Part shown: piece by piece, positions 882-37,531 of the stretch
Layout: every line of letters starts with the position of its first letter
Numbering within the stretch: the stretch's first letter is position 1
Notes under the pieces: generated by a model
Databases searched by the model: none
Seen by the model: only the letters and a program-made list of their open reading frames with translations
Told to the model about the DNA's origin: nothing
Program-made: the position numbers and the translations under genes
Origin: Thermodesulfobacteriota bacterium
Lineage (GTDB): Bacteria > Desulfobacterota_D > UBA1144 > Nemesobacterales > Nemesobacteraceae
Length of the DNA stretch: 64,000 nucleotides
Assembly (NCBI GenBank): GCA_965263275.1
Contig: OZ253668.1
Span: 388,486-452,485, forward strand
Direction of reading: 5' to 3'

Positions 882-1186
882 TCGCAGGGGGTTACAAGTT
901 CCGCCCGGTTTCCCGTAAGCGCAACTTTAACCCATCTGGACCGATAGAGGTGAACAAATCTGAAACGGCTTTTGTCAGCCTAATTATTAGTATGGTGAAT
1001 CGAGAAGTGCCAACTTCAAGGAGAAATTAAGATGGAATCTTTTGTATTTGAGGCAAGTTGGGATGACGAGGCGAAGGTATCGTGGGTTTCAAAAACACCC
1101 ATATCAGGATTAGTGACTGAAGCCGAAACTATAGATGAATTGGGAATTGTAGACTTGTTTACCCAAAGAATTATGGAACTACCAAC

Positions 1187-1600
1187 TTAATCTGCTAATT
1201 CTTCTAGCAACTGTCTGAACTTCTTGTTGCTGATGCTGTTCTTCTCTCTGTTAAGTAACAATCTTCTACATTCAACGAAGTTTTCGTACGGCTTATCCCA
1301 CAAGTATTCCGCACATACGGCATAAGTAACAACGGTGGGATTCTTTTCATCATTGAGCATCTGTTCCAGTGCTTTCCCTTCAAATCCCCACTCACTCCAA
1401 ACCTTGTAAAAACACTGCCTTGTCAAGAGTTTTTCTTCTACACATTTCTTGTGGGTACCGGATATTTCACCCACCCATTCAAGTGTACCGTCTCCTTTTT
1501 TTACCCACTCTGCATTCGTTGATTCTGGAAAGACTACACTTGTAAAACAGAAAAAAAGTAGAAATGCAAAGACCACTTTGAAACCTATTCTCATGGGCAC
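1187..1600 (-). CDS. Hypothetical secreted protein (N-terminal signal peptide)
   Basis: 137-aa ORF with a hydrophobic N-terminal leader (FKVVFAFLLFFCFTSVVF) in a low-GC patch. No recognisable domain. Confidence 0.45.
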   Translation of the reverse strand: MPMRIGFKVVFAFLLFFCFTSVVFPESTNAEWVKKGDGTLEWVGEISGTHKKCVEEKLLTRQCFYKVWSEWGFEGKALEQMLNDEKNPTVVTYAVCAEYLWDKPYENFVECRRLLLNREKNSISNKKFRQLLEELAD

Positions 1601-1761
1601 TTTTTCCTGCGTATGCGGGACTCTTTCAACTGCGAACGGTTCGGATTATAGCACGAGGACAGGGTCTAGGCAAAGAATTTTTAGTAGGTATACTTGGGGC
1701 TAAAGAGGGACTGGGAAACCCGATCCCTCTTTACTCTATTTGAAAAGGAGAACAAACGATA

Positions 1762-1911
1762 ATGCCACAGACTGGAGAAATATGTGAGCAATCTGGATTT
1801 TATCGTGGTGATTGCGGTTGTACGCAGATTAAAATGGTGAAAGGAAATAGATTCCCTCCTTGTAGAGTATGCAACAGAGGTGTCAAATGGACTTTCGTAG
1901 GGCTTCGATAA
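1762..1911 (+). CDS. Zinc-ribbon microprotein, 49 aa (CxxC..CxC..CxxC); absent from the supplied ORF track because it is under 60 aa
   Basis: ATG at 1762 is preceded by AAAGGAG at 1745-1751, and the stop is at 1909-1911. The translation is MPQTGEICEQSGFYRGDCGCTQIKMVKGNRFPPCRVCNRGVKW..., with four Cys pairs typical of a zinc ribbon. Confidence 0.4.
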   Translation: MPQTGEICEQSGFYRGDCGCTQIKMVKGNRFPPCRVCNRGVKWTFVGLR

Positions 1912-2306
1912 CATTTACAAGGTGATAGATTTGTAATCGTTGTGTGATCTAAGGGCTTCGGTGCTATATCCGCACAGAAACCCTATTATTATGTCTCTAT
2001 ATCTTTGGAGAATTTTGTTTCCACGTGCCCACTTGTAGGTATTCAGTACCCATAATTCTTTCGCAAATCCGTAAGTAACAAAGCCATCAGAGTCTTCTTG
2101 AACAAAGGGGATTACATCCGGGTAACAGGCAGACGTGTTTTCTAGTTGGGAAAGTAAACAGGAAGGGAAATCTTCACCAGTACTTTTCTGATTCCCGAAA
2201 TGCTTGAAACGGAAATACCAAGAGTTCCTTACCGATCAAAGCAACTTCCTTTAGGGAATGTGCAACGGTCTAGACTTGGCAAACTATGCTCCAAAGCTGA
2301 AAAAGA

Positions 2307-2347
2307 TTCTTCGAGAAAATGTCCGAGAAGGACAAGGAAGAAAGCGA
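2307..2347. repeat. ~41-44 bp direct copy of an internal dnaK segment (508..548), one mismatch; candidate att-like repeat
   Basis: gaaaatgtccgagaaggacaaggaaRaaagcgagcaggtt occurs at 508-548 inside intact dnaK and again at 2307-2347. The flanks diverge immediately on both sides. Confidence 0.7.
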
Positions 2348-2638
2348 GCAGGTTCTTTGAGATTTGGTGTTGCTTCCGGGGGTTTGGAGACTTTTAAAGG
2401 GTAGAAATTCAAGCTGGTTTGTGTTACACTGTTTACTAATAAGGTCGTTCTTCTCCTGTGTTGTAAAGTGTTGTAGTCGCTTATCTTATGACACAAACAG
2501 CGGCTTTTTCTATATCACTTTATGAGAAATTTCGGGCTAGGGATGATATTGACGCAATAGGTCCAAAGAGGAAAAAAGTAGGTATATTTACAACCATACT
2601 TTGGCACGGGCAAGGATCACTTAGCATAGGATTGTAAC

Positions 2639-3361
2639 ATGGCCGACAGATCTGGGATCGAATGGACTGACGCGACATGGAATCCGGTGACGGGTTGCAC
2701 CAAAATCACACGTGGTTGCGAGAACTGCTACGCGGCGCGCTTTGCCGAACGATGGCGTGGAGTCAAGGGCCATCCCTACGAACAAGGCTTCGACCTGCGT
2801 TTATGGCCATCGCGGCTTGATCAGCCATCACGATGGCGAAAATCTCGTATGATTTTTGTCAATTCGATGAGTGATTTGTTTCATAAACGCGTGCCGCGCC
2901 GGTTCATTGACGAAGTTTTCCAGCAGATGGAAAATGTGGATCACCACATCTATCAGATATTGACGAAGCGGAGTTCACTCATGCGGGATTATCTGAAGCG
3001 CAGGTACTCAGATGGTGCGGTTCCGGAGCATATCTGGTGCGGTGTTTCAGTGGAAGACCAAACGGCTACGGCCAGAATTCTGCATCTTCAAACTACACCG
3101 GCTACGGTTCGTTTTTTATCTGTTGAGCCGCTGTTAGGTCCACTAGGTGACATTGACTTGGAAGGGATTTCATGGGTTATTGTCGGCGGAGAAAGCGGTC
3201 CAAATGCTCGTTATTTGCATCTTGATTGGGTTTGCGACATCCGTGACCAATGTGCATCCACAGGCGTACCATTCTTCTTCAAGCAGTGGGGAGGGCGAAC
3301 GCCCAAGGCTGGTGGTCGCGAGCTTGAAGGGGTGGAACATAACGCTATGCCTAACTATTAA
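2639..3361 (+). CDS. DUF5131 / phage Gp37-Gp68 family protein (three-Cys motif)
   Basis: The N-terminus IEWTDATWNPVTGCTKITRGCENCYA is the family signature (WNPxxGC..GCxxCYA, Cx5CxxC). Length of 240 aa is typical. Confidence 0.8.
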   Translation: MADRSGIEWTDATWNPVTGCTKITRGCENCYAARFAERWRGVKGHPYEQGFDLRLWPSRLDQPSRWRKSRMIFVNSMSDLFHKRVPRRFIDEVFQQMENVDHHIYQILTKRSSLMRDYLKRRYSDGAVPEHIWCGVSVEDQTATARILHLQTTPATVRFLSVEPLLGPLGDIDLEGISWVIVGGESGPNARYLHLDWVCDIRDQCASTGVPFFFKQWGGRTPKAGGRELEGVEHNAMPNY

Positions 3362-3376
3362 ACGGAGGAATTATTC

Positions 3377-4630
3377 GTGTCTTCTTTCAAGTGGCATCCT
3401 AATGAGCCACCGCCTCAGATTGAAACACATAGCAAGGCGAAACTGGATGTGTTGCGCAGATACATTCAGGAGTATTTCGACAGGTTGAATGCCAAGCCAC
3501 AACGGGAGGAATTCAAGCTTGATCTAGTCGATGGTTTTGCCGGAGGCGGCACATTTCGTGATGGAAATACTGACCTCTCGGGTACGCCGTTGGTCATGTT
3601 AGAGGAAGCGGAAAAAGCGGAGAAGCGTTTAAACAAGAAGCGAAAAAAGCGACTACATATTAATTGTAAATTCTATTTCGTTGACAAGGAGAGAGCTCAC
3701 ACAGATCACCTTAAAAAAGTTCTCAAGGAACGCGAATATAGGGTTGATGAAGACAAAATTGTTGTCCGAAACGGTCTTTTCGAGAATGAAATCGAAGCTA
3801 TTCTTCGTTCAATTAAACAAAGACAGCCTCGTGCTGGACGTGCAATTTTTCTTCTCGACCAGACCGGTTTCTCTCAGGTGGAATTGTTGCTCGTCTCTAG
3901 GATTTTAAATGAGTTGCCAGCGGCAGAAGTTATACTTACATTTGCTGCGGAGACACTTGTCAATCATCTCGCAACAACACCTGAGATAGTCAAGGCGGTT
4001 TCACCGCTGCAACTGACTGAATCACAGATAGGCGACCTGATACAATATAAGGAAGGGGCTGGCGGAATGGCCTTAGTTCAGAGGACATTGCGCAATCATA
4101 TACGCTTAATGACCGGGGCGGAATATGACACTCCATTTTTCATTCGCCCTGCAATATCTCGCCGCGCATTGTGGTTTCTCCATCTGTCAAGACATCCTAC
4201 CGCGCGAGATGTCATGATTCGACTGCATTGGGATACTCAAAACAGGTTTGAGCATTATGGTCCCGGTGACTTCGGTATGTTGGGATGGGACGCATTAAGA
4301 GACTCCTCAAGTTTGCCTTTGTTTCAATTCGGTGATCTTGACCAGACACAGATGCGAAACCAGCTTCTGAACTCACTTCCAAGGAAGTTATTCAGCTTGG
4401 TATCTGAAGAGCCTGTTACCGTAGACGCGATGCGGCATATATTTGCAAATCAGACTGCCGCTCGATTTTCCGATCTTGATGAGATTATCCTTCAACTTGT
4501 TAGAGAAGAGGAGTTTCAAATTCTAGATCCAGAAGGCAAGGCGCGTTCGCGTTCACTAAAGCGTTTGAAGCCTACGGATCGAATCGGGCTGCCTCCAACC
4601 TTATTGTTTCCGGGGTTTTCCCGCAGGTGA
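3377..4630 (+). CDS. Three-Cys-motif partner protein TcmP-like (regular genomic partner of DUF5131)
   Basis: The 417-aa ORF starts 15 bp after DUF5131, so an operon is likely. Size and adjacency fit the TcmP family. An N-terminal LDLVDGFAGGGTF resembles a Rossmann/SAM motif I; this is inference. Confidence 0.55.
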   Translation: MSSFKWHPNEPPPQIETHSKAKLDVLRRYIQEYFDRLNAKPQREEFKLDLVDGFAGGGTFRDGNTDLSGTPLVMLEEAEKAEKRLNKKRKKRLHINCKFYFVDKERAHTDHLKKVLKEREYRVDEDKIVVRNGLFENEIEAILRSIKQRQPRAGRAIFLLDQTGFSQVELLLVSRILNELPAAEVILTFAAETLVNHLATTPEIVKAVSPLQLTESQIGDLIQYKEGAGGMALVQRTLRNHIRLMTGAEYDTPFFIRPAISRRALWFLHLSRHPTARDVMIRLHWDTQNRFEHYGPGDFGMLGWDALRDSSSLPLFQFGDLDQTQMRNQLLNSLPRKLFSLVSEEPVTVDAMRHIFANQTAARFSDLDEIILQLVREEEFQILDPEGKARSRSLKRLKPTDRIGLPPTLLFPGFSRR

Positions 4631-4752: not shown

Positions 4753-5649
4753 TCAGCTTCTCTTCACCCGTGCAAGCGACTCAATTAATTTACGCGAACG
4801 CCCAGCAATTAACGAACTCTGGTTATATATAATCTCATTAATTCTTCGAATTGTATGATCTCCTGTGATTTCAGCTAGACTCTCCTTTTCCCTAGGATGA
4901 GAGTCATGGTGTGTGACAGTTATATCGTGCGCGATTGGAAGATGCCATTCAGCTCCTGGATCAGAAAGTTTGTGATAGAGCCTTGCTGTGGGATTACTTC
5001 CGATAATAAAACTCTTGTTCGGTTTACGAATTATTCCGATAATGAGACCTCTGCTCTGAAGAATTTGAAATATCTTGCTTTCGGGAGTTAATCTGGCTAC
5101 CGCAGTTGCCCTAAGGTTGTGTTTTGTTCCGTCTATTTGTTTGGGATCATTCGCTTTCTTGATTTCTTCTTCCGTCGGTGGTCCATACTCTTTTTCATGC
5201 TCGGCTATAAGCTCGGGAATCCAATCAAGGTATTTATTCACAATTGGATCAAGGACATCCGGTGTACGAAAGGATTGAATCAGGAAAAATACATCCCATA
5301 TATTTTTTTCATCAGGAGTTAATTTAGGCAGTCTACCAGATCGGGCCGAGTTGATTATTTTTTTGGTTACGGGTGCAGCTTTTGACTCCAATTTAGACAG
5401 AGAGTCTTCAACTGAAACATTCTCCTCCTCGTGACCATCATATTGGGTGTAGAGTTCATCCTCTACGAAGAGTTTCTTTGGAGTTCTGCTTTTAACAACT
5501 CTCTCATGGGGCTTAATAACGGTTCCTTCAGAGGAACCTAAAATGCAGAAATGTAGTTTGTTGTCGTTATCTGTAAATTCTCGTAACAACAGTTGTGGCA
5601 CGTAATGGTGCCGTTTCGGTCGGTTCTCGGATTTGCTCATTAGATTCAC
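4753..5649 (-). CDS. DUF4238 domain protein (Rst_DUF4238-like defence candidate)
   Basis: N-terminal HHYVPQLLLREF matches the DUF4238 'HYVPQ' signature. Low-GC gene immediately downstream of the ATPase on the same strand. Confidence 0.65.
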   Translation of the reverse strand: MNLMSKSENRPKRHHYVPQLLLREFTDNDNKLHFCILGSSEGTVIKPHERVVKSRTPKKLFVEDELYTQYDGHEEENVSVEDSLSKLESKAAPVTKKIINSARSGRLPKLTPDEKNIWDVFFLIQSFRTPDVLDPIVNKYLDWIPELIAEHEKEYGPPTEEEIKKANDPKQIDGTKHNLRATAVARLTPESKIFQILQSRGLIIGIIRKPNKSFIIGSNPTARLYHKLSDPGAEWHLPIAHDITVTHHDSHPREKESLAEITGDHTIRRINEIIYNQSSLIAGRSRKLIESLARVKRS

Positions 5650-5763: not shown

Positions 5764-7929
5764 CTAAAGTTCCCGGACCTCTTCATAAACTTTCTTCAGA
5801 TGTTCATCAGATAAGTCCATAATAGGTTCATACATAAATGAATTGAGGTGAATATTCTCCGGCGTCATAAGAACAACCTTGTCTATAGATGAAATAGCAT
5901 CGCCGTCGTTCGGGTATTTCTCCTTAAACCTGCTCAAAAGCTTTGTTGTTTGAGATTCGTGAATTTCCGCCACGAAATTTGGTTCGTTGATTCGGGTAAT
6001 CATGTATTGTTCCGCCTTCAGTCTAGCCGCGATAGAGAGAACTATCTTGTTCTCCAAGTTTATACCCCCCTCGGCAACTAGACATGCATCGGCTTCTTGA
6101 AAAATGAGATCAAGAACTTTTCCAGTCCCGCCATTTGCGGGTTTGATTTTGGAACTGAACAGGTTTCGATAAATCTCAAAGAGATCGGCCTCTGTCAGAC
6201 TGTTCGTATCGGTTTTTATATGAAGCAGGGAAGTGAGTTTCTTGAAGTGTTCCGAATCTTCTCCAACGGTATACTCTACGAGGTTCCGCATGAATGGTAT
6301 TGACGCAATCCGCTTTCTTGGGTTGGAGGCAAAGTCCGGTTTCCAATCCTTCACGAAAACATTCTTTATCCCCGTCGCAGGTTCGATTTTAATCCCATCC
6401 TCGTTGCGTTTAGCCAAGAAGCAGGAACCGTAGTTAACAAAGCGGCTCTGGACTGTCCGGAAAAAATCAAAATTGTGCGTCAAAATCAATTGGCGGAAAT
6501 TCTTCTTTTCCGAAATATCCTTCAGGTACTGAATTATTGCGTACTTGTTTCTGTAATCAAACGAATCCGCAATATCATCAATAATCATTATAGTTTTCTG
6601 TCCAGAACTAATTCGTACTTGAATCTCGAATATGATGTTCAGGATATAGAAAGCTTTTTTTTCTCCAGTGCTAAGTACTTCAAGAAGGCTGTCTCTTTCT
6701 AAATCTTTACGCTCTTCACCATCTTTGAATGTAAAACCGAGCTTAAGAATCTTCTCCTCTCCGAGCGTGACGGGGATTTTGTTCTTCACGACCAATTCAA
6801 AAGGGACAAAAAAACGTGTGTTAAAAATCTCAATAACCTTCTCCCACTCAGTTCGTTCCCGTCCAGCCACTTCTTCTATTTCTTTTTTCTTTTTGGCTGC
6901 ACCCCGGATTTCCTCAACCAGTTTTTTGAATAGCTCCTTGTTTACACCCAAATAGCTCTTCCAGACATTGTCTTTGAACTCAGTTATATTGGCCAACGCT
7001 GGAAGAATTTCCTCATTTTCCGAAATATAGCTCTGAAATCCTCGCATACCCGCATTCTTTATTAGCAACTTTTCGAGCCCTTGGAATACTTTCCGCAATC
7101 CAGGGTCGGAGGATATCTCCTCCTTCTCTTTCTGAATCAGTTGCTCAAGCTGTTCGCTCGATTCTACTTCCATCGGATCTTGGGCATTGAGACTGACGGT
7201 ATGTTTAGCTTTGAAAAATCCGTTATCAGCAAGAGTTTTCGCAATGACTGAAGCATTGTAATAGGTGAAAACCCCTCTTTTGAAGTAAGTCGAACGATCG
7301 ATTAGTTCATTGTATCTCTTTATATAATCCTCAATGGTATCTTTAGCTCCTCCAGTGTTTAGAAACTCGAGAACTCTATTATCAAAGACCACATCATAGC
7401 GAATGTCTGCAAAAGGAAAGCTTGTTTCAGACATTACTTCCTCATATATACCAGAGATAGCACGCGTAAACTTGTCTTCTAAGGCAGTAAACGTTAAGGA
7501 GATCTCTTTTTCCAAGTTCTTCTTAGATCCAGATTGTTGCTTCATCGCATCCAGAAATTGCCTCTTCGCGTCTTCTACACTGGAGTTGAGTTCCTCATAT
7601 TTTTTGCGAAGCTGGGCATTGACTAAGAGTGTAGACGTCTTCTCGGTACTACCTAGGTCCTCATCATAAGGTCGAACGACCAAGATCGATGCGGGCTCCA
7701 AGGAAACGTCTTTCTCATCGGTTATAAGACATTTCGTATCTCTATCTGGAAATACCAGATCAGCAGATTCCTTACCTTCGCTTATATCCTGAAATGTCTT
7801 GGCGAGGGAGGATTTCATTGCTCCGTTTGGAGCGTATACAGCGACGGCCGGACAATGGTTAAAACTGAATTGCTTTTCCAGTCGACGGATACCGTAACAG
7901 TGTTCCAGATCCAACTTCAAAGTTCGCAT
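5764..7929 (-). CDS. ABC/SMC-fold ATPase (AAA_15/AAA_21-like) with a long helical insert and an extra C-terminal domain of ~230 aa
   Basis: Walker A (VAVYAPNGAMKSSLAKTF) is near the N-terminus. The ABC signature LSTGEKKAF, Walker B IMIIDDIADSFD and H-loop LILTHNFDF lie ~400 aa later. The spacer is charged and coil-like. Confidence 0.65.
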   Translation of the reverse strand: MRTLKLDLEHCYGIRRLEKQFSFNHCPAVAVYAPNGAMKSSLAKTFQDISEGKESADLVFPDRDTKCLITDEKDVSLEPASILVVRPYDEDLGSTEKTSTLLVNAQLRKKYEELNSSVEDAKRQFLDAMKQQSGSKKNLEKEISLTFTALEDKFTRAISGIYEEVMSETSFPFADIRYDVVFDNRVLEFLNTGGAKDTIEDYIKRYNELIDRSTYFKRGVFTYYNASVIAKTLADNGFFKAKHTVSLNAQDPMEVESSEQLEQLIQKEKEEISSDPGLRKVFQGLEKLLIKNAGMRGFQSYISENEEILPALANITEFKDNVWKSYLGVNKELFKKLVEEIRGAAKKKKEIEEVAGRERTEWEKVIEIFNTRFFVPFELVVKNKIPVTLGEEKILKLGFTFKDGEERKDLERDSLLEVLSTGEKKAFYILNIIFEIQVRISSGQKTIMIIDDIADSFDYRNKYAIIQYLKDISEKKNFRQLILTHNFDFFRTVQSRFVNYGSCFLAKRNEDGIKIEPATGIKNVFVKDWKPDFASNPRKRIASIPFMRNLVEYTVGEDSEHFKKLTSLLHIKTDTNSLTEADLFEIYRNLFSSKIKPANGGTGKVLDLIFQEADACLVAEGGINLENKIVLSIAARLKAEQYMITRINEPNFVAEIHESQTTKLLSRFKEKYPNDGDAISSIDKVVLMTPENIHLNSFMYEPIMDLSDEHLKKVYEEVREL

Positions 7930-8145: not shown

Positions 8146-8938
8146 ATGAGAGATTATACAGCGAAGGGCCCTAAAAAAAAGGTAATTCAGATAAACGAGA
8201 AGGAACTGCAGCAACACCTCAGCCCCCTTGTCACGGATACAGTACAGGAAGTTCTGAATCAGGTTCTCGACGCGGAAGCGGACGAGATGGTCGGGGCGGC
8301 TCGATACGAACGAAGCGCCGATCGCCAGGATTATCGTTACGGGAGCTACACAAGGAAGCTCCAAACCAAGGCAGGAGAAGTTGAGCTGAATATACCCAAG
8401 CTTCGGGAGCAGACGTTTCAGATGGCCATAATAGAGCGTTACAGGCGACGGGAGTCATCGATAAAAGAAGTTTTGGTGGAGATGTATCTTGCGGGAGTGT
8501 CGACGCGTCGGGTGGCGGATATCACCGAGGCGCTGTGGGACACGCGGGTGAGTTCGGCTACCGTATCGAAGCTTAACCAAAGCGTGTACGAGCACATAGA
8601 GAAGTGGAGAAACAGGTCGATAGAAGGAGAGTTTCCGTATGTATATCTTGACGGGGTGAGTCTCAAGGCAGGGGTGTGTAGATGAGACGCTCACGTACTA
8701 CGGGTTTCCGTCGTCGCACTGGCGGAGGATCCGGACGAACAATTCTATGGAGAGGATAATCAGGGAGATCAGGCGAAGATCCAGGGTGGTGGGAGCTTTC
8801 CCTGACGGGCAAAGCGCGTTGATGTTGTGTGCGGCGAGGTTAAGGCATGTATCGGGGACGAAGTGGGGGAGCAGGAGATATCTGGATATGGAGTTGTTAA
8901 GGGAAATGGACAGAAAGGAGGGAGTTAAGGTAGGGTGA
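8146..8938 (+). pseudogene. IS256-family (mutator) transposase remnant with an internal deletion
   Basis: 8146-8685 encodes the N-terminal ~179 aa of an IS256-type transposase (YERSADRQDYRYGSYTRKLQTKAGEVELNIPKLRE...). 8747-8938 encodes only the C-terminal tail (ERIIREIRRRSRVVGAFPDGQSALML). The DDE core is missing. Confidence 0.75.
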
Positions 8939-13874: not shown

Positions 13875-14090
13875 AGCCTAACCTGTAAAGTTCAACAGTT
13901 TTGAAAGTATCCTCCAGTTTCTTGTTTCGCAAGAAACTGCCCGGAAGGATGTTCGTTTTTCTGCTACTTCTCTGAATAATTTTACCAGACCACGTATTGA
14001 TTGTCTTATTCATCAGAAGAGAACCCAAAAACAGGACAGCGTCTTAAGTGTATTCCTGCAGTAGAGTAAAACCAGATACTCGAGGTTCAT

Positions 14091-27284: not shown

Positions 27285-27420
27285 TTTTACGGATCTCCCC
27301 GCTACCATTGAGCAATCCGTGGATTTGTATAGCGCGACAAACAAGATTGAACGGTTGCGACAAACAAGATTGAACTTTCATGTCGCAGCGAAAGAGACAA
27401 TACCGGGATAATTCAGGGGA

Positions 27421-27445
27421 CGCAACCCCGGAATCCGGGGTTGCG
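27421..27445. other. Perfect 11-bp stem / 3-nt loop hairpin just downstream of istB
   Basis: cgcaaccccgg-aat-ccggggttgcg. Confidence 0.55.
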
Positions 27446-27460
27446 CGGGTGGGGTGGGGG

Positions 27461-28288
27461 TCAGCCGGATGTGTCGCTTTCGGTGGCGAACTTCGCGGGT
27501 CTTCCCTGTTTTTTCTTCTGTTCCATGGCTTGACGGCGTCTGTAGCTCTCCACGTTCATCTCAAGTATCACGCAGTGATGCACAAGGCGATCCACCGCTG
27601 CCACCGCGGTGTTTTCGTCAGGAAACACCTTTGTCCATTCGGTAAACGGCTGATTGGCGGTAATGAGCACGGAACGTTGCTCATAACGGACCGATATCAG
27701 TTCGAACAGCACGCTTGTTTCGGCGTGATCTTTGCGCACGTAGGCCAGATCGTCAAGAATCAGCAGGTCGTAGCGGTCAAGCCTGTTGAGCATATTCTCA
27801 AGGGACAGTTCCCTTTGAGCCGTCTGGAGCTTCTGAACAAGATCCGTCGTACGGGTGAACAGCACCCGTTTCTCCTTCTCCACCAGAGACAAGCCGATTG
27901 CCGAAGCCAGATGACTCTTGCCCGCCCCCGGAGGGCCGAAGATTATCACATTGTGTCCGCCTCTTAGCCACGAATCGTTTGAAGCCAGGGCCATGACCGT
28001 GGGTTTGGATATAGTGGGAACCGCGTCAAAGTCGAAGTTCTCAAGGGTTTTTCCTGGAAGAAGACGGGCTTCGCCCAAGTGGCGGCGTATCCTGCGCCGT
28101 TGCCGCTCGGCAAGTTCAAGATCCGCGAGAGTTGCGAGCAGCCGGGCCGCGGGCCACCCCTCGGTATCCGCCCGTTCGGCGAACCGCTCCCACATCTGCC
28201 TGATCGCGGGCAGCCGAAGTTCGCGGAACATGAGGTCAAGGTCGGCTTTTCCGATCTCCACCACCTTTTCATTGGGTTTCGTATTCAT
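27461..28288 (-). CDS. istB: IS21 helper ATPase IstB
   Basis: Walker A IIFGPPGAGKSHLA and Walker B LLILDDLAY; DnaC-like AAA+ typical of IstB. Confidence 0.85.
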   Translation of the reverse strand: MNTKPNEKVVEIGKADLDLMFRELRLPAIRQMWERFAERADTEGWPAARLLATLADLELAERQRRRIRRHLGEARLLPGKTLENFDFDAVPTISKPTVMALASNDSWLRGGHNVIIFGPPGAGKSHLASAIGLSLVEKEKRVLFTRTTDLVQKLQTAQRELSLENMLNRLDRYDLLILDDLAYVRKDHAETSVLFELISVRYEQRSVLITANQPFTEWTKVFPDENTAVAAVDRLVHHCVILEMNVESYRRRQAMEQKKKQGRPAKFATESDTSG

Positions 28289-29787: not shown

Positions 29788-30020
29788 CGTGAACCTCCCG
29801 CTCGATAGATTGAGCGGGGTTCTTACCCGGCCGGTCGTGAACACCGAAAGAAATTCAAAAAAATCTGGGGAGATGCTGTCTGAAACGGAAGGAGGGCGTA
29901 GCCCGACTGGAGTTTCAGACAGCATCTCCCCAGAGTCTCATCTTGTTTGTCGCAAAAGTTCAAAGTTGATTGACGCAGGATATTGTTAAATGAAGTTCCG
30001 TTTAAGTTAGTAGAGAAGCG

Positions 30021-31568
30021 CTATCCCGCTTGAGCGTAACACCCGGAAACAAGCGACCTCATCTTCTCGGGCCGCCCGGCCTTTATGTGGCCAACAGCCA
30101 ACGCCATCATCACCGCCACCGCGAGACCCGCCCGGGCGGTCATACGAGCCTTGCCCCTGATATAATGTCTTTCAAATCCAAAACTGTTGTCAATCCTGGA
30201 GTTGATACGCTCAATAGCGTTTCTACGCCTGTAAGCGCGCTTCCATGATGCGCAACCACATGGGGTCGGAGTAAAAATACGACGGTCCTTCTCAAGCGGG
30301 ACACGGACGACTCTGCCATAACCATTGGTCTTGCAGCCGGCATCACTGTGACACTTCTCCCAGCCTTTGCAATGCAGACCGAACGCGGCTGCCGGACAGC
30401 GGAATTTCAAAGCGCCCCGTTTGTCTTCACTGCCCCATGGCGCCATCTTGCGTTCCGTCCCGCTTACGGGACAGCGACACCAAAGCTCCGCCTTTTCCGT
30501 ATAAAAGACATTATCGTGAACACTGTCCAGAGGTCTCATAATCCGCTGCCCGGGCACATAGCTTTGGTTCTGCTTCTCCTCTCTCCACAGTTCTCTGTTG
30601 TCAATAACCGGACGGATTCGGTAATCATCCCACAGTTTCTTTTTCAAAGCGCCGCTGTCAAGCCCCCGGTCCGCGCTGAAGTATCTGCATCGCTTCGCCA
30701 ACCCGGGGTCTTGGGTAAACAACTTGTCTATCATGCAATCCAGTTCCACGACCTCAGAGACCGAAGCCCTGGTCACGCTGAAAGCAACGGGTATCTCATA
30801 TTTCGTCTCGGCAATAATATGCAGCTCATAACCGAACCAGGCTTTTATGCGTGACCATGTTTTGCCGGTACCGGAGTCAACCCCGGAGGTTTCGTGTTTT
30901 CCCCAGTCCGCGTCCGGGTCTGATGTTTCAGCTGTACCGCGGTTCTTCCGTCCCGTGGAATTACTCCTTATGGCCTTGCCGTCATAACCCAGGTTCTCCC
31001 CGAAGTCAGGACACAGTTCCATCAACTCTTTCCCCATACCGCCAATCATCTGTGAAACAAGACCCTGGCGCTCCTCCAGCCTGGCTACGTTTGAGAGGAA
31101 TCGGGAGAAATTGGAACTTCCCGGCGCGGGACTGCGAGGAGGAAGGTCTATAACTGTCACTTTGGCTCCACCACCGCCGGTACCCGGTTTGATTCCGTAC
31201 CTGCCGCGACTTTGCACAGGTACGGGACTGAACCCGCAGATGACAAGCAGTGATGAGTTCCGGTTAAGTTCCCGTATGAGTGAAGAAATGGATTCGTGCT
31301 GGAAGACTATGCCCGCGATCAGCGCTTTCCACATTGCAGACACCGGGTATTCGTTACGGCCGTTTTTACGCATGCTTCCAAGAGCACGGATGATATCGCC
31401 GTCGGGCAAGGCATCCAGTTCGAGCTGAAGACGGTTGAGGTCAGAAATCCTGTCGACTTCATCCCATGAAAATGGTAGGTTAGTTTGTGTCGCCACGGGG
31501 TTGCTCCTCCGGGAGAATGGATTTTTGTTGCTAACTTTAATTCTAACCTGTGGCGACATTAAAAACAA
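30021..31568 (-). CDS. IS4/IS5-superfamily DDE transposase (IS1182/ISNCY-like)
   Basis: 515 aa. The C-terminal NAIERINSRIDNSFGFERHYIRGKARM is the typical DDE_Tnp_1 tail. Confidence 0.6.
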   Translation of the reverse strand: MFLMSPQVRIKVSNKNPFSRRSNPVATQTNLPFSWDEVDRISDLNRLQLELDALPDGDIIRALGSMRKNGRNEYPVSAMWKALIAGIVFQHESISSLIRELNRNSSLLVICGFSPVPVQSRGRYGIKPGTGGGGAKVTVIDLPPRSPAPGSSNFSRFLSNVARLEERQGLVSQMIGGMGKELMELCPDFGENLGYDGKAIRSNSTGRKNRGTAETSDPDADWGKHETSGVDSGTGKTWSRIKAWFGYELHIIAETKYEIPVAFSVTRASVSEVVELDCMIDKLFTQDPGLAKRCRYFSADRGLDSGALKKKLWDDYRIRPVIDNRELWREEKQNQSYVPGQRIMRPLDSVHDNVFYTEKAELWCRCPVSGTERKMAPWGSEDKRGALKFRCPAAAFGLHCKGWEKCHSDAGCKTNGYGRVVRVPLEKDRRIFTPTPCGCASWKRAYRRRNAIERINSRIDNSFGFERHYIRGKARMTARAGLAVAVMMALAVGHIKAGRPEKMRSLVSGCYAQAG

Positions 31569-32052: not shown

Positions 32053-32078
32053 GAGGAATCAGTTTTTTCTGGACGTGC
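32053..32078. repeat. 26-bp direct repeat, copy 1 (gaggaatcagttttttctgRRcgtgc); the adjacent short inverted repeat is aaatcccgattttta at 32020-32034
   Basis: Matches 33445-33470 with a 2-nt swap. Together with the inverted repeat at 33499-33510 it brackets the three-gene cassette. Confidence 0.7.
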
Positions 32079-32218
32079 GGATTTCCGGCAAATTGGATAG
32101 TTAAGTACATAATTCCCCGAAAGCTCTATTGACTTTCCTGTCCGCAATTGGTTTAATTGCCCTGCGTGTGAAGTTGTCCCTGTGCGTATAATCAGCTACA
32201 AGGGGAAATAGTGCGTGG

Positions 32219-32680
32219 GTGAAAATAATGGAAGAAAAACACAGTCTGCAACTTTGTCCTATTGTTTTCTGTCAACAAGTATTATGGTCAGAGTTGTTGT
32301 CTAGCGGTGATTCTCTGCCAAGCTTGATAAATGTATTCGACGGCATTGTAGACGGCATTGAAGAGATAACACCTTCTGGTGCTTACTTGGCTGAGATTTA
32401 TCTATTTGCGAAAGCAGAAGCACTTGGAAATGTAGAGAAAAACTACGAAGTGCTTATTGAGGTGTCCAATCCTTCTAACAGAAGGATTGCAAGCGTCAAA
32501 GGACATGCAGAAATAAAACACATCCAGATGGGCAATCGTGTTGGAGAGATAGTACAACCCTTGACTCTTCTAATTTTCGAAGATGGTTACTATCTGGTAA
32601 CCATTAAGTTTCAAGATGAGGTCATTGGAACGGCAACATTGTACATTAACAGAAATTTTGTACCTGATTCTAATTCCTAG
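32219..32680 (+). CDS. Hypothetical protein
   Basis: 153-aa ORF with no recognised motif, first gene of the repeat-bounded cassette. Confidence 0.35.
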   Translation: MKIMEEKHSLQLCPIVFCQQVLWSELLSSGDSLPSLINVFDGIVDGIEEITPSGAYLAEIYLFAKAEALGNVEKNYEVLIEVSNPSNRRIASVKGHAEIKHIQMGNRVGEIVQPLTLLIFEDGYYLVTIKFQDEVIGTATLYINRNFVPDSNS

Positions 32681-32693
32681 CAAGAGGTGATTT

Positions 32694-33107
32694 ATGGGTC
32701 TTTGTACACTCAAATTAAGGCAAGAACCGTATCAGTTCCAAAGTCCTGCAAGCCTTGCGACAAAGAGGGGGCTTAATCCTCTAAGAGAAATCTTTAGAGT
32801 TCTTCAAGATTCTCTGGTTGTAACATCGTTTCTTTGGAAAGGCCAACCATGTTTTGTTTCACCTCCGCTTCTGTTTAAGTGGAACAGGGATGAAGAAACA
32901 GGGATGTTCGAGTTGGTCGGAACAGATGTATATGAAGATCTGAGAACATACGGGGAAACATTAAGTGAAGCTTTAGAGGCATTGCAAGAAGGTGTCCTTC
33001 CAGTTCTCTGTGAAGACTATATTAACAGAGGCAATCTCAAGCTAACCAGAAGAGCCGAAGAAATGGCAGTTGATTTTGGAAGGCGTGTAGACGCATCATG
33101 CCCTTAA
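32694..33107 (+). CDS. HicB-like (UPF0150) antitoxin candidate
   Basis: GMFELVGTDVYEDLRTYGETLSEALEALQEGV resembles the HicB motif P.hPGC.tQGeT.EEA..NA.EAL. Overlaps the downstream HicA-like gene by 10 nt. Confidence 0.4.
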   Translation: MGLCTLKLRQEPYQFQSPASLATKRGLNPLREIFRVLQDSLVVTSFLWKGQPCFVSPPLLFKWNRDEETGMFELVGTDVYEDLRTYGETLSEALEALQEGVLPVLCEDYINRGNLKLTRRAEEMAVDFGRRVDASCP

Positions 33108-33388
33108 AGAAAAGGAAAGTTGAGGGAGGACTGGAGAGAAAAGGATTCGAAAAAACGAAAGAGACTCATCATATATATTTTCGATATGTCACAATGGATG
33201 GTGTTAGGACATCTATACAGACATATACCTCTCACGGTTCATCAGGCAAAGAAATAGACAATAAGATTATTTCACACATGGCTGGACAGTGCTCCCTTTC
33301 CACTCGGCAGTTTAGGGAACTTATAAGTTGCGAACTCTCAAGGGAGAGTTATGAGCAGGTATTAGATCTTCAGGGAAAACTTTCTTGA
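33098..33388 (+). CDS. HicA-family (YcfA-like) mRNA interferase toxin candidate
   Basis: LERKGFEKTKETHHIYFRY ... SHGSSGKEIDNKIISHMAGQ parallels the HicA signature G[FW]..R.KGSHH...H...VP.HG.KDL..G.L..ILKQAG. Confidence 0.5.
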   Translation: MPLKKRKVEGGLERKGFEKTKETHHIYFRYVTMDGVRTSIQTYTSHGSSGKEIDNKIISHMAGQCSLSTRQFRELISCELSRESYEQVLDLQGKLS

Positions 33389-33444
33389 CTGATTCTTTTT
33401 CCCCTCGGATAGTCTCCAAAAACCTCAAAAACTTTTTTTAGGGC

Positions 33445-33470
33445 GAGGAATCAGTTTTTTCTGAGCGTGC
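33445..33470. repeat. 26-bp direct repeat, copy 2
   Basis: See copy 1. Followed at 33499-33510 by aaaaatcgggat, the inverse of the left-end motif. Confidence 0.7.
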
Positions 33471-33578
33471 CAATTTTGCCCAAAAACGTCGAAAACCCAA
33501 AAATCGGGATTCAGTAATTCCAAGCACTTACAAAACACCGGATTTCCAAAATTTCGTTATTTTTTTCGCTCCGCCCAT

Positions 33579-34863
33579 TCAACTCTGAAGTGCAACACCC
33601 TGGTTAAGGATCTAGTTTGGGGAATTTTATAATTTCTCAAACACACTGTAAAAACAGTTAAGCAAAGGTGACAATCTCCGAGACGAGAACAGGAGGTTGT
33701 CATGACCAGGAGTTACAAGCAGTTGGACATTCTCGAGCGTCAGCGGATTTACTTTCTGCGCAAGCAGGGATTTTCGCTTCGGAAGATTGCTGAGGATCTC
33801 AGTCGTTCTCCATCAACCATATCGCGGGAGGTAAAGCGCAACAGCGGCGGGAGGGGTTACCGTTTCGCCCAGGCGCAGCGCAAGGCCAGGCAGCGGGGCA
33901 CCGCGGCGTCCTCCGTGCCCCCCAAGATGACCGAGCGGATGTGGTTCATCGTGGAGAGCAAGCTTGGTCTGCAGTGGAGTCCCGATCAGATATCGGGACG
34001 GCTCAAGCTTTCAGCAGTGGTTTCGGTGAGTGCGGAGTGGATATACCGTCACGTGTGGGAGGACAAGCGCAGCGGAGGGAAGCTTTACAAGCATCTGCGG
34101 CGCCGGGGGAAGAAGCGCAACAGCCGAGGGTCGGGGTATTCGGGCAGGGGGCATATACCGGGCAGGGTGGACATAACGGAGCGTCCACAGATAGTTGAGG
34201 ACAAAAGGCGTGTCGGGGACTGGGAGGCCGATACAATCGTCGGCGCTGGACATAGAGGCGCTTTGGTGTCCGTGGTGGATCGGGCGTCTAAGTTCACGGT
34301 TCTTCATCCCGTGAGTTCAAGGAGCGCGGGGGAAGTGGGAGAGGCCATGATGGAGAGGCTTATGCCCTACGTAGAGATTGTACATACGATTACTTCTGAT
34401 AACGGAAAGGAGTTTACGGGTCACGGGGAGATAACCGAAGCGCTGGGGGCGGGGTTTTTCTTCGCTACCCCTTATCACTCGTGGGAGAGGGGGCTTTGTG
34501 AGCATACAAATGGACTTGTACGTCAGTACTTTGCGAAGGGGACGGATTTTCGGGAGGTTCGGGGAGATGAGGTAAGGAGGGTCGAGGGGCTGCTCAACGG
34601 GAGGCCTCGGAAGGTTCTGGGGTACCGGACGCCGGAGGAGGTTTTCAAAGAGGCCTTGGCCCTCGGGGGTTGATCCGGAAGAACAGGGAGAGAGGGGTCG
34701 GAGAGGAGTCCGGGGGCGCCATGGCGTTTGCCTTCGGTCGGGCTACGCCCTCCCTTCGGCAACCGCCATCCAGATGTCTTGATAATCCGGTGCCGGGGAA
34801 TATAATCTTTTCCCTAAACGGAGAGCATCATCTTTTGCTGAAAGTGTTGCACTTCAGAGTTGA
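33579..34863 (+). mobile_element. IS30-family insertion sequence with 20-bp terminal inverted repeats
   Basis: Left IR tcaactctgaagtgcaacac (33579-33598); right IR gtgttgcacttcagagttga (34844-34863). The transposase ORF occupies 33702-34673. Confidence 0.8.
33702..34673 (+). CDS. IS30-family transposase
   Basis: N-terminal HTH (LRKQGFSLRKIAEDLSRSPSTISREVKRN) and a DDE core (DWEADTIVG...TSDNGKEF...HSWERGLCEHTNGLVRQYF). Confidence 0.85.
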   Translation: MTRSYKQLDILERQRIYFLRKQGFSLRKIAEDLSRSPSTISREVKRNSGGRGYRFAQAQRKARQRGTAASSVPPKMTERMWFIVESKLGLQWSPDQISGRLKLSAVVSVSAEWIYRHVWEDKRSGGKLYKHLRRRGKKRNSRGSGYSGRGHIPGRVDITERPQIVEDKRRVGDWEADTIVGAGHRGALVSVVDRASKFTVLHPVSSRSAGEVGEAMMERLMPYVEIVHTITSDNGKEFTGHGEITEALGAGFFFATPYHSWERGLCEHTNGLVRQYFAKGTDFREVRGDEVRRVEGLLNGRPRKVLGYRTPEEVFKEALALGG

Positions 34864-34891
34864 TAAGAGGGTTACATGAAAGGAGGCAACA

Positions 34892-36583
34892 ATGAGCAAG
34901 AAAATTAGCGGAGCCGAATACAATCTGGCGAAAATATTCAGTTCTGATTTTGAATACGTGATTCCTTCCTACCAGCGTCCGTACGCGTGGACGGTAGATC
35001 AGGCGTCGGAGCTTTTTGACGACTTGTTTGATTTCCACAAGTCTGAAGCCGAAGAAGAATATTTTCTTGGCAGCATAGTTCTTATTAAGCGGGAGTCGGA
35101 CCCTTACTCGGAGGTAATAGACGGTCAGCAGAGGTTAACCACTTTGACTATTCTCCTATCCGCATTGGCTTCGATATTTAAAGGAGGGCAACGAGACATA
35201 TTACGTAAGTACATACAGGAACCCGGCAATGAGTTCACTGGACTGGAACCCAAACCGCGCTTGACCCTCAGGGACCGGGACAAAGAGTTTTTCCTTAAAT
35301 ATGTTCAAGAACTGAATTTTGACGGCCTTCTTAAGTTGGATGAAAAACGTCTTGATAACGAGGCGCAAATAAACATCCAGAAAAATAGCGGGCTTTACCT
35401 GCAGCGCATATCGGAGCAACTGGAAAACGATCTCCCGCGAATAAAGGAATTTGTTAAGTTTTTATTGCAACGCTGTTTTCTAGTTGCCGTATCAACACCT
35501 AGCCAGCAGTCGGCGTTCCGTGTTTTTTCCGTCATGAACAGCAGGGGTCTGGAACTTCAGCCGACTGATATCATCAAGGCTGACATCATCGGACAACTGA
35601 GTACGGAAAAAGAAAGGGAGGAATACAGCCAGCGCTGGGAAGATATGGAAGTCGAACTCGATCGAAGCGGTTTTAACGATTTGTTCTCTTACGTGAGAAT
35701 GATATATGCGAAGGAGAAGGCGAAAAGATCCTTGCTCGACGAGTTTAGAACCCATGTTCTGACGAGAGTAAGGGAACCGAAGGAACTGATTAGTGAAGTT
35801 TTGGAGCCATTTTCAGATACCTTGGCCACCGTTTGGAATTTTAACTACGAGGCGACATCCCATGCGGAAGAAGTCAATACTTATCTTCGATGGTTAAACC
35901 GGATAGACAACTCGGACTGGATTCCTGCCGCCATTTTGTTTTTATCAGGAAACAGAAACGATTCCGAATACGCTGCTTGGTTCTTCAGAAGGTTGGAAAG
36001 ACTGGCTGCCTATATGCATATAAGTGCATTATATGTTAATGAACGTATCGAACGCTATAATGAGGTCATCAAAGCTTTAGAGAGAAAGCACAGTTTCGAG
36101 TTGCCTGTGCGAGCCGTTGAGCTAATCGATGAGGAAAAAGAAAGAATGCGGAGCGCTTTAAGCGGAAATATCTACGAACTGACGCCTAGACGAAGAAATT
36201 ATCTTATTCTGCGGCTGGACGCCTTTCTCTCCGACGGTGCCGCATCTTATGATCCGAGCGTTTTAACCATAGAACACGTACTGCCTCAAACCGTGGATCC
36301 GGGCAGCGAGTGGGCGTCGGTCTGGCCGGATGAGCAATTTAGGAAGGATTGGGTACATAAACTGGCTAATCTAGTCCCGCTCAATCGCCGAAGAAATTCG
36401 CAAGCGCAGAATTATGATTTCGAAAGAAAGAAAACCGCTTATTTTTCCGGGAAAAAAGGCGTTTCATCGTATGCACTGACTACTCAAGTGCTCAAAAGCT
36501 CCGAATGGACACCGGAACACTTAGCCGATAGGCAGAGGGAACTTTTGGATGTGCTTGAGGAAAGCTGGGAACTAACCCCTTAA
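34892..36583 (+). CDS. GmrSD/BrxU-like type IV restriction endonuclease (DUF262 ParB-like NTPase plus DUF1524 His-Me nuclease)
   Basis: DUF262 DGQQRLTT near the N-terminus; DUF1524 IEHVLPQ ... WVHKLANLVPLNRRRNSQAQN near the C-terminus. AGGAGG RBS. Confidence 0.75.
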   Translation: MSKKISGAEYNLAKIFSSDFEYVIPSYQRPYAWTVDQASELFDDLFDFHKSEAEEEYFLGSIVLIKRESDPYSEVIDGQQRLTTLTILLSALASIFKGGQRDILRKYIQEPGNEFTGLEPKPRLTLRDRDKEFFLKYVQELNFDGLLKLDEKRLDNEAQINIQKNSGLYLQRISEQLENDLPRIKEFVKFLLQRCFLVAVSTPSQQSAFRVFSVMNSRGLELQPTDIIKADIIGQLSTEKEREEYSQRWEDMEVELDRSGFNDLFSYVRMIYAKEKAKRSLLDEFRTHVLTRVREPKELISEVLEPFSDTLATVWNFNYEATSHAEEVNTYLRWLNRIDNSDWIPAAILFLSGNRNDSEYAAWFFRRLERLAAYMHISALYVNERIERYNEVIKALERKHSFELPVRAVELIDEEKERMRSALSGNIYELTPRRRNYLILRLDAFLSDGAASYDPSVLTIEHVLPQTVDPGSEWASVWPDEQFRKDWVHKLANLVPLNRRRNSQAQNYDFERKKTAYFSGKKGVSSYALTTQVLKSSEWTPEHLADRQRELLDVLEESWELTP

Positions 36584-36733
36584 TGTTTGGGAATTACCGC
36601 TTTAAGTAACCGGACTCCTTATACCCAACCTCTTTTGAAATTCTAAAAATCTCAACCTTCATCTATGACTTTATATTATTATACCCGTTTGAGCTAATTT
36701 TTTCGAGAATGAGGAACAGATTTTCCAGGAGTA

Positions 36734-37300
36734 TTATTGCCTGAACCACCAATCTGATAAATAATACAACGCACTAACACCATAAAACAGAATCAACCAT
36801 AAAAACGAAATAGAGTGCTTTTGAAAGAAGGCTTTAGAAAACACAGGTAGCGATCCTCTAATCTTCCTCTTTATAATTTTTTCCGCTTCTCTATAACCTT
36901 TCCTTTTAATAGTTCTCCTGCATTCTGTTATGTGAGCAAGGAATTCTGGAGTAAAAAAGTCTGTTGTGGCTTTAAAATTGTCAGGCAGAGAAAACCAAGT
37001 GTTTAAATATCTAGCTATTAGTTCCTTTACGTCACGCAATTCTTTAAAAGTAAAGGGTTTATTATATACCCACTTTTCCGCCATTTTTTCAATTTCTGAC
37101 AAGTGTTTTATCATTTGATCTTCTTTTAGAATATCATTATTATTGTTAGGGCTCCTAGCGAAAAAGACAAAAAGAAAAATCTTTCTGATCCAGTTATAAA
37201 ATGCTGGTATTATAGCGCCCACTATTATCTCCTTGTGCCATTCGGCCCACAAATCTTGTAATAATATGTGAAAGTCCATGTGTATTAATATACACACCAC
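36734..37300 (-). CDS. Hypothetical protein with hydrophobic N- and C-terminal segments; low GC (~35%)
   Basis: 188-aa ORF with no recognised domain, sitting at the island/core boundary next to aceE. Confidence 0.4.
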   Translation of the reverse strand: MVCILIHMDFHILLQDLWAEWHKEIIVGAIIPAFYNWIRKIFLFVFFARSPNNNNDILKEDQMIKHLSEIEKMAEKWVYNKPFTFKELRDVKELIARYLNTWFSLPDNFKATTDFFTPEFLAHITECRRTIKRKGYREAEKIIKRKIRGSLPVFSKAFFQKHSISFLWLILFYGVSALYYLSDWWFRQ

Positions 37301-37531
37301 GCAACTCGTACCTGACTTGGGTAATCCTCGAAAAAAAAGGAGCGCCGAAATAATTCCGTGCCAGTAGTGATATTTTTCTCCCTGCGGTTAAACTGCTTTT
37401 CCGAATTTGGGCTTCTACTTTTGGGTCCAGCGTGCCGTTTTTAGCGCTTGGGGCCGAATTACGAGGACAAAGTAGTTGCTCCATGTTGCAAATTCCCCCG
37501 CGGCCCCGCTTCGTCGCGTTTTGTATCTATA

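Follow-up and report, generated by a model that had tools for sequence, protein, structure and literature searches.

How defense hotspots flanked by core genes are built is an open question (PMC10250203), and it is raised in concrete form by a 36.5-kb island that lies between the 3′ part of dnaK and aceE in a Thermodesulfobacteriota bacterium (GTDB lineage Bacteria; Desulfobacterota_D; UBA1144; Nemesobacterales; Nemesobacteraceae). The stretch of DNA analyzed, hereafter the window, comprises 64,000 nt of contig OZ253668.1 in assembly GCA_965263275.1 (388,486-452,485, forward strand), and the island occupies its positions 882-37362; all coordinates below are window positions unless prefixed by the label of a related locus (L001, L081, and so on). 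New immune systems are sought mainly in defense islands, and this one had been singled out as a mosaic of defense genes and mobile elements in which novel systems were most likely embedded. Here, the open reading frames (ORFs) of the window were searched against the Pfam, PADLOC, NCBIfam, and PHROGs profile libraries, all functions given below being assigned by homology, and the locus was aligned with its relatives. The results indicate that the island is the variable cargo of a chromosomal defense hotspot, assembled from independent blocks in what was formerly the dnaK-aceE intergenic region, a reading to which a probability of roughly 0.85 is assigned.

Shared flanks and unshared cargo

The comparison covered seven related loci whose flanks have 81-95% nucleotide identity to those of the window, namely the closest species representative, L001 (a Thermodesulfobacteriota metagenome-assembled genome chromosome from a sister species, with 90% amino acid identity in aceE), and six strain-level contigs (L081-L084, L090, and L091) that were retrieved via their DnaK homologs and have flanks approximately 92-95% identical. 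On the left, homology to these relatives breaks off at 882-892; on the right, it returns at 37334-37365. Synteny is restored at 37363-37365 for L001, L081, and L090, with L001 running collinear from 37363 rightward. The predicted mosaic between dnaK and aceE is borne out, with borders within 20-90 nt of the 900-37450 originally proposed. To its right lie the aceE leader and aceE (37363-40201, with aceE at 37529-40201, plus strand; Pfam PDH_E1_M and related domains, together with synteny), and the other genes of the right flank are likewise housekeeping genes (aceF, lpd, holA, ndk, cysC, and recN). No tRNA or tmRNA gene was found at the island borders, no Rfam family reached its gathering score anywhere in the 64 kb, and no CRISPR-like or other tandem arrays were found.

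Between these flanks, the dnaK-to-aceE distance varies from 4.3 kb in L090 and 7.3 kb in L081 to 36.5 kb in the window (measured from the 3′ part of dnaK, here dnaK′), and the cargo varies with it. Upstream of its collinear part, L001 encodes a TIR-like protein, a methyltransferase, a Z1-like protein, and an IS3 element (families read from ORF translations, not from profiles). The six strain-level contigs carry cargo unrelated to that of the window, including ScoMcrA_N, DUF87 with DruA, DUF6119, AbiTii, PLDc_2, PhdYeFM/PIN, and TIR_2 proteins, DUF4411 with an M78 peptidase, a 1234-aa SIR2_2 protein, HipA, a methyltransferase-HNH protein, a 1982-aa double-PIN protein, AbiEi_3, and SLFN_AlbA_2. 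The only cargo genes common to the window and the seven loci are an IS3 remnant and a 0.5-kb region that holds the gene for a 137-aa protein (in L090); beyond these, they share a 158-nt segment associated with the aceE leader and a 45-nt scar of dnaK. From shared flanks with almost no shared cargo, it follows that the 36 kb is an accessory, strain-specific defense hotspot and not core DNA: the flanks are kept, the cargo differs, and the same 36 kb was not seen conserved in these relatives. The notion that the region is ordinary core DNA of this lineage with an unusual composition, which could appeal to the conserved flanks and to nothing more, is already refuted by how little the seven loci have in common with it.

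The island averages 46.5% GC, with 1-kb segments ranging from 38 to 59%. The original prediction had put core genes at about 55% GC, which holds for the immediate flanks (54.1% in the dnaK piece and 56.4% in aceE-aceF-lpd) and not for the rest of the right flank, which averages 51%; its alternation of low- and high-GC blocks was confirmed, at 34-58% between blocks. High-GC blocks comprise the gene for a phospholipase D (PLD)-family nuclease (55%) and the insertion sequences (ISs) IS1634 (58%), IS21 (56%), an IS5/IS1182-like element (54%), and IS30 (56%), and low-GC blocks comprise an antiphage signaling system based on cyclic oligonucleotides (CBASS, 37-41%), a DUF805 gene (34%), orf188 (34%), and a DUF4238 gene with PDC-S46 (42%).

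Nine defense or candidate modules with strong profile matches and intact catalytic motifs are packed into the 36.5 kb, the motifs being intact in IetA, IetS, the CBASS CD-NTase, GmrSD, the SIR2-like protein, and the PLD protein. All seven modules named beforehand (Type ISP restriction-modification, IetAS-like, CBASS, SIR2, DUF4238, GmrSD-like, and PLD nuclease) were recovered by profiles at their predicted places, the six IS elements or remnants were likewise present by profiles or inverted repeats, and the PADLOC search added two candidates (DUF5131 with TcmP, and PDC-S46). Long ORFs are intact throughout the window, one homopolymer site excepted. No new defense system is demonstrated in the island, and nothing demonstrated bears out the expectation that novel systems are embedded there: its known content is ordinary, consisting of systems that are known or already listed as candidates. 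Less ordinary are the fragments of flank genes found in this lineage and a possible poly-G switch on the Type ISP enzyme.

Flank-gene fragments and the turnover of cargo

The window opens with a 292-codon 3′ part of dnaK that runs off its start (3-881, plus strand; Pfam HSP70 4e-88, profile positions 347-598) and is 92-94% identical at the nucleotide level to the dnaK copies of L081-L091. In all five relatives that could be judged, the dnaK sequence closest to the cargo on the aceE side is a 3′ fragment. L082 and L083 each have a full-length dnaK beside a sigma-70 gene, then approximately 5-6 kb of cargo, an IS3 fragment fused to a second, displaced dnaK′ of approximately 900 nt (L082 10119-11019; L083 10033-10935), and more cargo. 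L084 and L090 have a common junction (L084 9122-10779; L090 7691-9311) in which an aceE 5′ fragment (aceE′, approximately 570-600 nt, made up of the leader and approximately 400 nt of coding sequence) is followed, after a short spacer, by a dnaK′ of approximately 920 nt, head to tail; in L090, 4.3 kb of cargo and then the full aceE come after it. L081 has a dnaK′ of 1207 nt (9963-11169) and a separate 220-nt copy of the aceE leader (6733-6952). The left breakpoints of dnaK′ in the relatives number at least three (query positions 1604, 1891, and 1918), and the internal aceE piece of L083 starts at window coordinate 37927, just past the end of the L084 fragment at 37924. Duplicated pieces of both flank genes within the hotspot are the sort of trace that cargo movement via flank recombination would be expected to leave.

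Full and fragmentary dnaK copies within one genome differ mostly by synonymous codon changes (31:9 and 47:10), and all frames are open. This pattern fits fragments that would have diverged within the functional dnaK genes of other strains and then been imported with cargo, and does not fit duplicates decaying neutrally in situ. The dnaK piece of the window is itself probably such a relic, with more island to its left, although this is held with modest confidence; the suggestion comes from the fragmentary state of the aceE-side dnaK in relatives, from the window's start, 9 nt inside the point at which L082 and L083 have their IS3::dnaK′ junction, and from a 45-nt copy of internal dnaK (2312-2356, plus strand, equivalent to 503-545; 98% in a repeat search and 93-98% to the dnaK of relatives) that is read as a recombination scar. 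Amino acid deviations from the DnaK consensus, of which the window copy has 8, four fragments 5-9, the L081 fragment 3, and full copies 3-4, are only suggestive of a fragment in the window. The island itself is probably a single unit within a larger composite. The 45-nt repeat was also considered as attL/attR of a 1.8-kb element and rejected in that role: no recombinase lies between the copies, and dnaK does not continue past the second.

Within the island, the segment of 158 nt at 22912-23069 (blastn 82-84% to L001 9662-9822 and L090 7526-7681) directly adjoins the aceE or aceE′ leader on its upstream side in L001 and L090 and here lies 14.3 kb from aceE, which is why the island's right-hand part, from DUF805 through orf188 (14.3 kb), is interpreted as a later insertion at this segment. 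The segment retains the first seven codons of a 270-aa gene found in L001 and L090. The left junction of this part, at 23070, sits in a perfect hairpin, TATATAGTTCCC-TAGCGGG-GGGAACTATATA.

The proposed explanation starts from what was observed, namely domain content, borders, non-conservation of cargo, and flank-fragment scars in relatives. The cargo would have built up from blocks acquired independently of one another, each of them carrying a complete anti-phage or anti-plasmid module of its own: a Type ISP enzyme predicted to restrict unmodified DNA and a GmrSD enzyme predicted to restrict modified DNA, together with IetAS, an E2-type CBASS with a membrane effector, a SIR2-like protein, a DUF4238 protein, a PLD nuclease, and the candidates DUF5131 with TcmP and PDC-S46. 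Among these blocks lie six IS copies or remnants and a single dead integrase. Turnover would proceed mainly via recombination in the conserved flanks, blocks arriving with a piece of the donor's dnaK 3′ end, its aceE 5′ end, or both. An incoming block would replace the resident one or stack beside it, the latter leaving the order dnaK - cargo - aceE′ - dnaK′ - cargo - aceE, which either a single crossover with a circularized [dnaK′ - cargo - aceE′] or unequal exchange between strains could produce; IS activity and deletions would later erode the blocks. A more far-reaching proposal, offered tentatively and with more doubt than conviction, is that dnaK-aceE serves as an integrase-independent capture platform that stacks imported blocks in tandem, that the Type ISP gene is switched by its poly-G tract, and that the orphans (a three-gene cassette, orf188, and the 137-aa protein) may include an undescribed defense module. 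If true, the open flank fragments would be direct scars of transfer by flank homology, which has been proposed and not shown for core defense hotspots.

Several points weigh against this explanation. The defensive activity of every module is predicted from homology; two modules are PADLOC candidates only, the PLD gene is an orphan, and the SIR2-like protein is borderline in Pfam (SIR2_2, 23.9 bits against a cut-off of 24.5). The recombination route is deduced from scars and was not observed, and a neighbor-joining tree of nine dnaK copies is star-like, with full copies and fragments not separated. The window begins inside dnaK, so that a full copy and a fragment are not distinguishable from the window. 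The source is apparently a metagenome assembly, in which chimeric joins at IS copies are possible. Finally, site-specific integration has also had a part in building the island at some time, as an integrase stub shows. This 133-aa ORF (21214-21615, plus strand) matches the N-terminal and central domains of tyrosine integrases, as had been predicted for a truncated integrase, with all matches below threshold (Pfam Phage_int_M 6.5e-4 and Phage_int_SAM_3 5.8e-3); it has no catalytic domain (R..HxxR..Y), and the SIR2 gene begins at its stop codon.

The same stub invites a reading of the 36 kb as a single mobile element, an integrative element or degraded prophage that entered by one site-specific insertion at the 3′ end of dnaK and then decayed, and the 45-nt dnaK segment repeated 1.8 kb downstream, reminiscent of an att duplication, and the dnaK 3′ duplications of the relatives could be fitted to it. 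This reading is improbable: the stub lies in the middle of the island and not at an end, Pfam and PHROG scans of the island revealed no genes for phage structure, conjugation, or replication, neighboring blocks range from 34 to 58% GC, and, compared with L001 and L090, the 14.3 kb on the right has been inserted. Moreover, an integrase specific for dnaK would not give at least three dnaK′ breakpoints paired with aceE 5′ fragments. Still less credence is given to the view that the mosaic is partly an artifact of assembly or binning, with contigs from different organisms having been fused where they share IS copies or repeats. All sequences compared are metagenome assemblies, some of the relatives have 3-19x coverage and evident frameshifts, and the window has several IS copies, which make up most of its high-GC blocks. 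However, several independent contigs from this lineage are collinear with the window on both flanks and repeat the dnaK′...aceE architecture under other cargo, IS21 and IS30 keep both inverted repeats, and long ORFs are intact except at the one homopolymer site.

Defense modules, mobile elements, and orphan genes

The exception among the intact ORFs is the Type ISP restriction-modification gene (8986-13874, minus strand; Pfam Mrr_cat_2, ResIII, Helicase_C, ISP_coupler, N6_Mtase, and Type_ISP_C). All six domains are present in the canonical order of Mrr-like nuclease, superfamily 2 (SF2) ATPase, coupler, gamma-class N6-methyltransferase, and target-recognition domain, and as assembled they are divided between two ORFs (549 and 1098 aa) that cover positions 2-544 and 547-1640 of PADLOC PDLC03597 and do not form one polypeptide. 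The split is a -1 frameshift, the only one in the gene, in a G10 tract (plus-strand C10, 12252-12261) that is the window's sole homopolymer of at least 9 nt; one extra G restores a single ORF of 1629 aa with no other lesion. Alleles from further contigs differ at this very tract: while the window has G10 and needs G11, L085 (85% amino acid identity) has G9, needs G10, and is split alike (548 and 1073 aa), L086 (96%) has G10 and needs G9, and in L087 (95%) the tract is interrupted (TCGGAGGGGGAGGCAGAC) and the gene is in frame throughout. Because the tract is kept across 15% protein divergence and its variable length sets the frame, it bears the signature of a contingency locus, and phase variation of the enzyme is given about even odds. 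Homopolymer miscalls are a possible alternative; the contig names of L085 (a scaffold) and L086 (SPAdes NODE-style) are of short-read type, which speaks against miscalls and leaves them possible. At a frameshifted Type ISP locus of Helicobacter pylori, the C-terminal half alone is an active methyltransferase (PMC3936762), and the OFF state here might by analogy lose restriction and keep methylation.

Further to the right, IetA (15145-16338; PADLOC 1.5e-120) and IetS (16341-18656; E=0) are encoded 2 nt apart on the plus strand, with Walker A GSPGTGKN, Walker B LFLDEFD, and the triad Asp268/His298/Ser508. The CBASS operon, also on the plus strand, consists of a Cap15-like effector with two transmembrane segments (2TM; 18889-19500; Pfam Cap15_CD_rec 7e-21, PADLOC Effector 2TM 1.7e-32), a CD-NTase (19497-20450; Pfam DncV-like_NTFase/SMODS, PADLOC Cyclase 4e-109) whose gene is overlapped by that of the effector by 4 nt and whose catalytic motifs are GSF at residue 53 and DMD (DxD) at residue 77, and a 220-aa E2-like protein with a SEC-C motif (20435-21097; Pfam SEC-C, PADLOC E2 1e-20). 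Because Pfam and PADLOC found no match to E1 or JAB domains in the ORFs next to the E2 gene, the operon fits the E2-only subtype, presumably the "short" type II class, and not type II with a Cap2 E1-E2 and a Cap3 JAB protein. A 100-nt similarity between 21074-21173 and L091 1406-1509 was also seen here, and no feature was recognized when the sequences were read. The 334-aa SIR2-like protein (21615-22619, plus strand; PADLOC SIR2 3.6e-12) has GAGFS, LNYD, and LHGS motifs by eye and is predicted to act by NAD+ depletion; a gene partnering it was not identified.

The GmrSD-family type IV restriction enzyme (34892-36583, plus strand; Pfam GmrSD_N 5e-40 and GmrSD_C 5e-26; PADLOC Orf5 2e-164 and HEC-06 1e-65) carries DGQQR at residue 77 in its DUF262 NTPase and HVLP at residue 462 in its DUF1524 His-Me nuclease. 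The PLD-family nuclease (23767-24924, plus strand; Pfam PLDc_2 4e-14) has its HxK motif at residue 86 and matches DrmC over its full length (PADLOC PDLC02599 4e-146); its assignment to a DISARM system was rejected, as no other island ORF matches DrmA, B, D, E, or M in PADLOC. Upstream of it lies a DUF805 membrane protein gene (23261-23665, plus strand; Pfam 3.4e-28) with no PADLOC match.

On the left side of the island, adjacent plus-strand genes 15 nt apart encode a DUF5131 protein (2639-3361; Pfam 7e-96) and TcmP (3377-4630; NCBIfam TIGR04474 1.6e-54, exceeding its cut-off). In PADLOC the pair corresponds to PDC-M41/M30 (PDC-M41B 2e-100 and PDC-M30A 9e-19), a candidate system only, for which a literature search found no experimental support. 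The DUF4238 protein (4753-5649, minus strand; Pfam 1.5e-28, 1-272 of 281 profile positions) has no match in PADLOC v2, and a DUF4238 protein has been experimentally validated as a single-gene system that guards E. coli against T7 (PMC9122126). PDC-S46, a candidate single-gene system encoding an SMC/ABC-like ATPase (5764-7929, minus strand), matches its PADLOC model end to end (6.5e-272); its Walker A region reads APNGAMKS, with methionine replacing the usual glycine before lysine, and a Walker B-like IMIIDD motif is present. DUF4238 and PDC-S46 are independent modules: a two-gene system was rejected because none of 33 metagenome PDC-S46 loci has a DUF4238 homolog within 5 kb.

Of the six IS elements or remnants, IS21 (27334-29976, minus strand; istA 28285-29925, istB 27461-28288; Pfam IstB_IS21 2e-62 and Mu-transpos_C_2) and the apparently intact IS30 (33579-34863, plus strand; perfect 20-nt inverted repeats; Pfam HTH_38 and rve) have both terminal repeats in place. 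The others are an IS256 (Mutator-family) transposase remnant with an internal deletion (8146-8938, plus strand; Pfam Transposase_mut 8-171 and 338-370 of 379 in two ORFs), the IS3-family remnant (13995-14780, plus strand; Pfam HTH_21), which is 92-96% identical at the nucleotide level to the IS3 fragment fused to dnaK′ in L082 and L083 and 69-73% to the IS3 of L001, a 591-aa IS1634/IS4-type DDE transposase (25509-27284, plus strand; Pfam DDE_Tnp_1 4.6e-15), and a 515-aa IS5/IS1182-type transposase (30021-31568, minus strand; Pfam DDE_Tnp_1, DUF772, and DDE_Tnp_1_6). Near the ends of IS21 and IS30 lies a GC-rich palindromic unit (…GAAACGGAAGGAGGGCGTAGCCCGACTGGAGTTTC…; 29864-29934 and 34732-34758) that also occurs in L001 (5711-5753, 100% over 43 nt) and looks like a repetitive extragenic palindrome or a preferred IS target.

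Between the IS5/IS1182-type gene and IS30, a three-gene cassette (32053-33476, plus strand) contains orf153 (32219-32680), orf137 (32694-33107), and orf96 (33098-33388), none of which has a family match in Pfam, PADLOC, or NCBIfam. Its common core (32093-33434, 1.34 kb) is bracketed by 32-nt direct repeats and is 90% identical in L088 (3537-5513), where it lies in an unrelated context beside an AAA_15/AAA_21 ATPase gene and between direct repeats of approximately 300 nt and different sequence. These differing repeats speak against an integron gene cassette, an identification that was rejected, since GTTAAGT occurs at the 5′ edge only, with no attC-like 3′ site and no IntI. Homologs are few (2 for orf96 among 5.8 billion clusters; 9 representatives for orf153 among 1.8 billion). 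An AlphaFold-type model of orf153 is all-beta (pLDDT 82.5), with generic matches to Ig-like/FnIII-like sandwiches (TM <0.5), the orf96 model is unusable (pLDDT 51 from a 3-sequence alignment), and PDB sequence searches with orf96 and orf137 gave nothing below E=0.4. The pair orf137/orf96 had been proposed as toxin-antitoxin genes, for which no significant profile match was obtained, the best for a HicAB-type pair being a PHROG "toxin" family at a non-significant E=0.05. Considering the overlap of the two genes, a palindrome at the promoter, and this one weak match, a toxin-antitoxin operon with an accessory gene is nonetheless the best guess.

The remaining orphans lie at the edges of the island. 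At the right, orf188 (36734-37300, minus strand; 188 aa, 34% GC) has no match in Pfam, PADLOC, NCBIfam, or PHROGs. At the left, a 52-aa DUF1902 (HicB-like) stub (1032-1190, plus strand; Pfam 1.1e-5, 2-35 of 74 profile positions) and small orphan ORFs occupy 1032-1911, where the 137-aa protein with a hydrophobic N-terminus (1187-1600, minus strand) likewise lacks matches in the four libraries; its gene region is 93% identical in L090, at another position of the hotspot.

Two further observations concern the right flank. Collinearity with L001 is broken there only at 45952-47259 (1.3 kb, compared with 0.4 kb in L001), within a 529-aa ORF (45575-47164) that has no Pfam match. In addition, L091 5112-5557, just downstream of that strain's full-length dnaK and near a DUF5677 gene, has an inverted counterpart of 79% identity at 61052-61492, 24 kb beyond the right end of the island, which hints at rearrangement between the hotspot and a distant region.

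Comparison with known systems

Phase-variable restriction-modification genes with homopolymeric tracts are known, for example, in Campylobacter and Neisseria. The Type ISP enzyme has the domain order of LlaGI and LlaBIII (Mrr nuclease, SF2 ATPase, coupler, N6-adenine methyltransferase, and target-recognition domain), and copies split by frameshifts also occur at Type ISP loci of H. pylori, where, in contrast to the G10 tract that varies between alleles here, the frameshifts are stated to lie outside repeats (PMC3936762). With the poly-G contingency loci of Campylobacter and Neisseria it shares an intragenic tract of 9-10 nt and alleles that differ by 1 nt in either direction, one of them interrupted in frame (PMC8355987); unlike those, it belongs to a free-living type of anaerobe and not to a host-adapted pathogen, and its tract is known from assembled alleles alone. 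The CBASS operon resembles E2-only ("short" type II) systems in combining a CD-NTase, an E2-like protein, and a cyclic-nucleotide-gated effector in one operon (bioRxiv 10.1101/2022.05.25.493364). It differs in having the effector gene first, a Cap15-type 2TM beta-barrel effector, and an E2-like protein that ends in a SEC-C zinc motif.

Defense hotspots flanked by core genes have likewise been described in E. coli. The present locus adds a well-delimited hotspot from a poorly studied anaerobic lineage, in which the cargo at a single site differs among several co-occurring strains, and it yields a Type ISP enzyme that is a candidate for phase variation, as well as a handful of orphan genes. It is similar to the hotspots of P2-like phages and P4-like satellites in being a short variable locus with interchangeable cargo, including a single-gene DUF4238 system (PMC9122126), whereas those hotspots reside inside mobile elements with integrases of their own and this one is chromosomal and without an intact integrase. 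It also parallels cDHS1 and cDHS2 of Pseudomonas aeruginosa, which are fixed sites with conserved marker genes, strain-varying combinations of defense systems, and GC content below that of the genome, and which are proposed to be transferred as entire regions through homologous recombination between their flanks (PMC10250203). The dnaK-aceE hotspot differs from them in its host, an uncultivated Thermodesulfobacteriota bacterium, in its flanking genes, and in having no tRNA or tmRNA at its border; furthermore, duplicated fragments of both flank genes lie inside the hotspot in its relatives, a feature not reported for the cDHS regions in the consulted text of that study.

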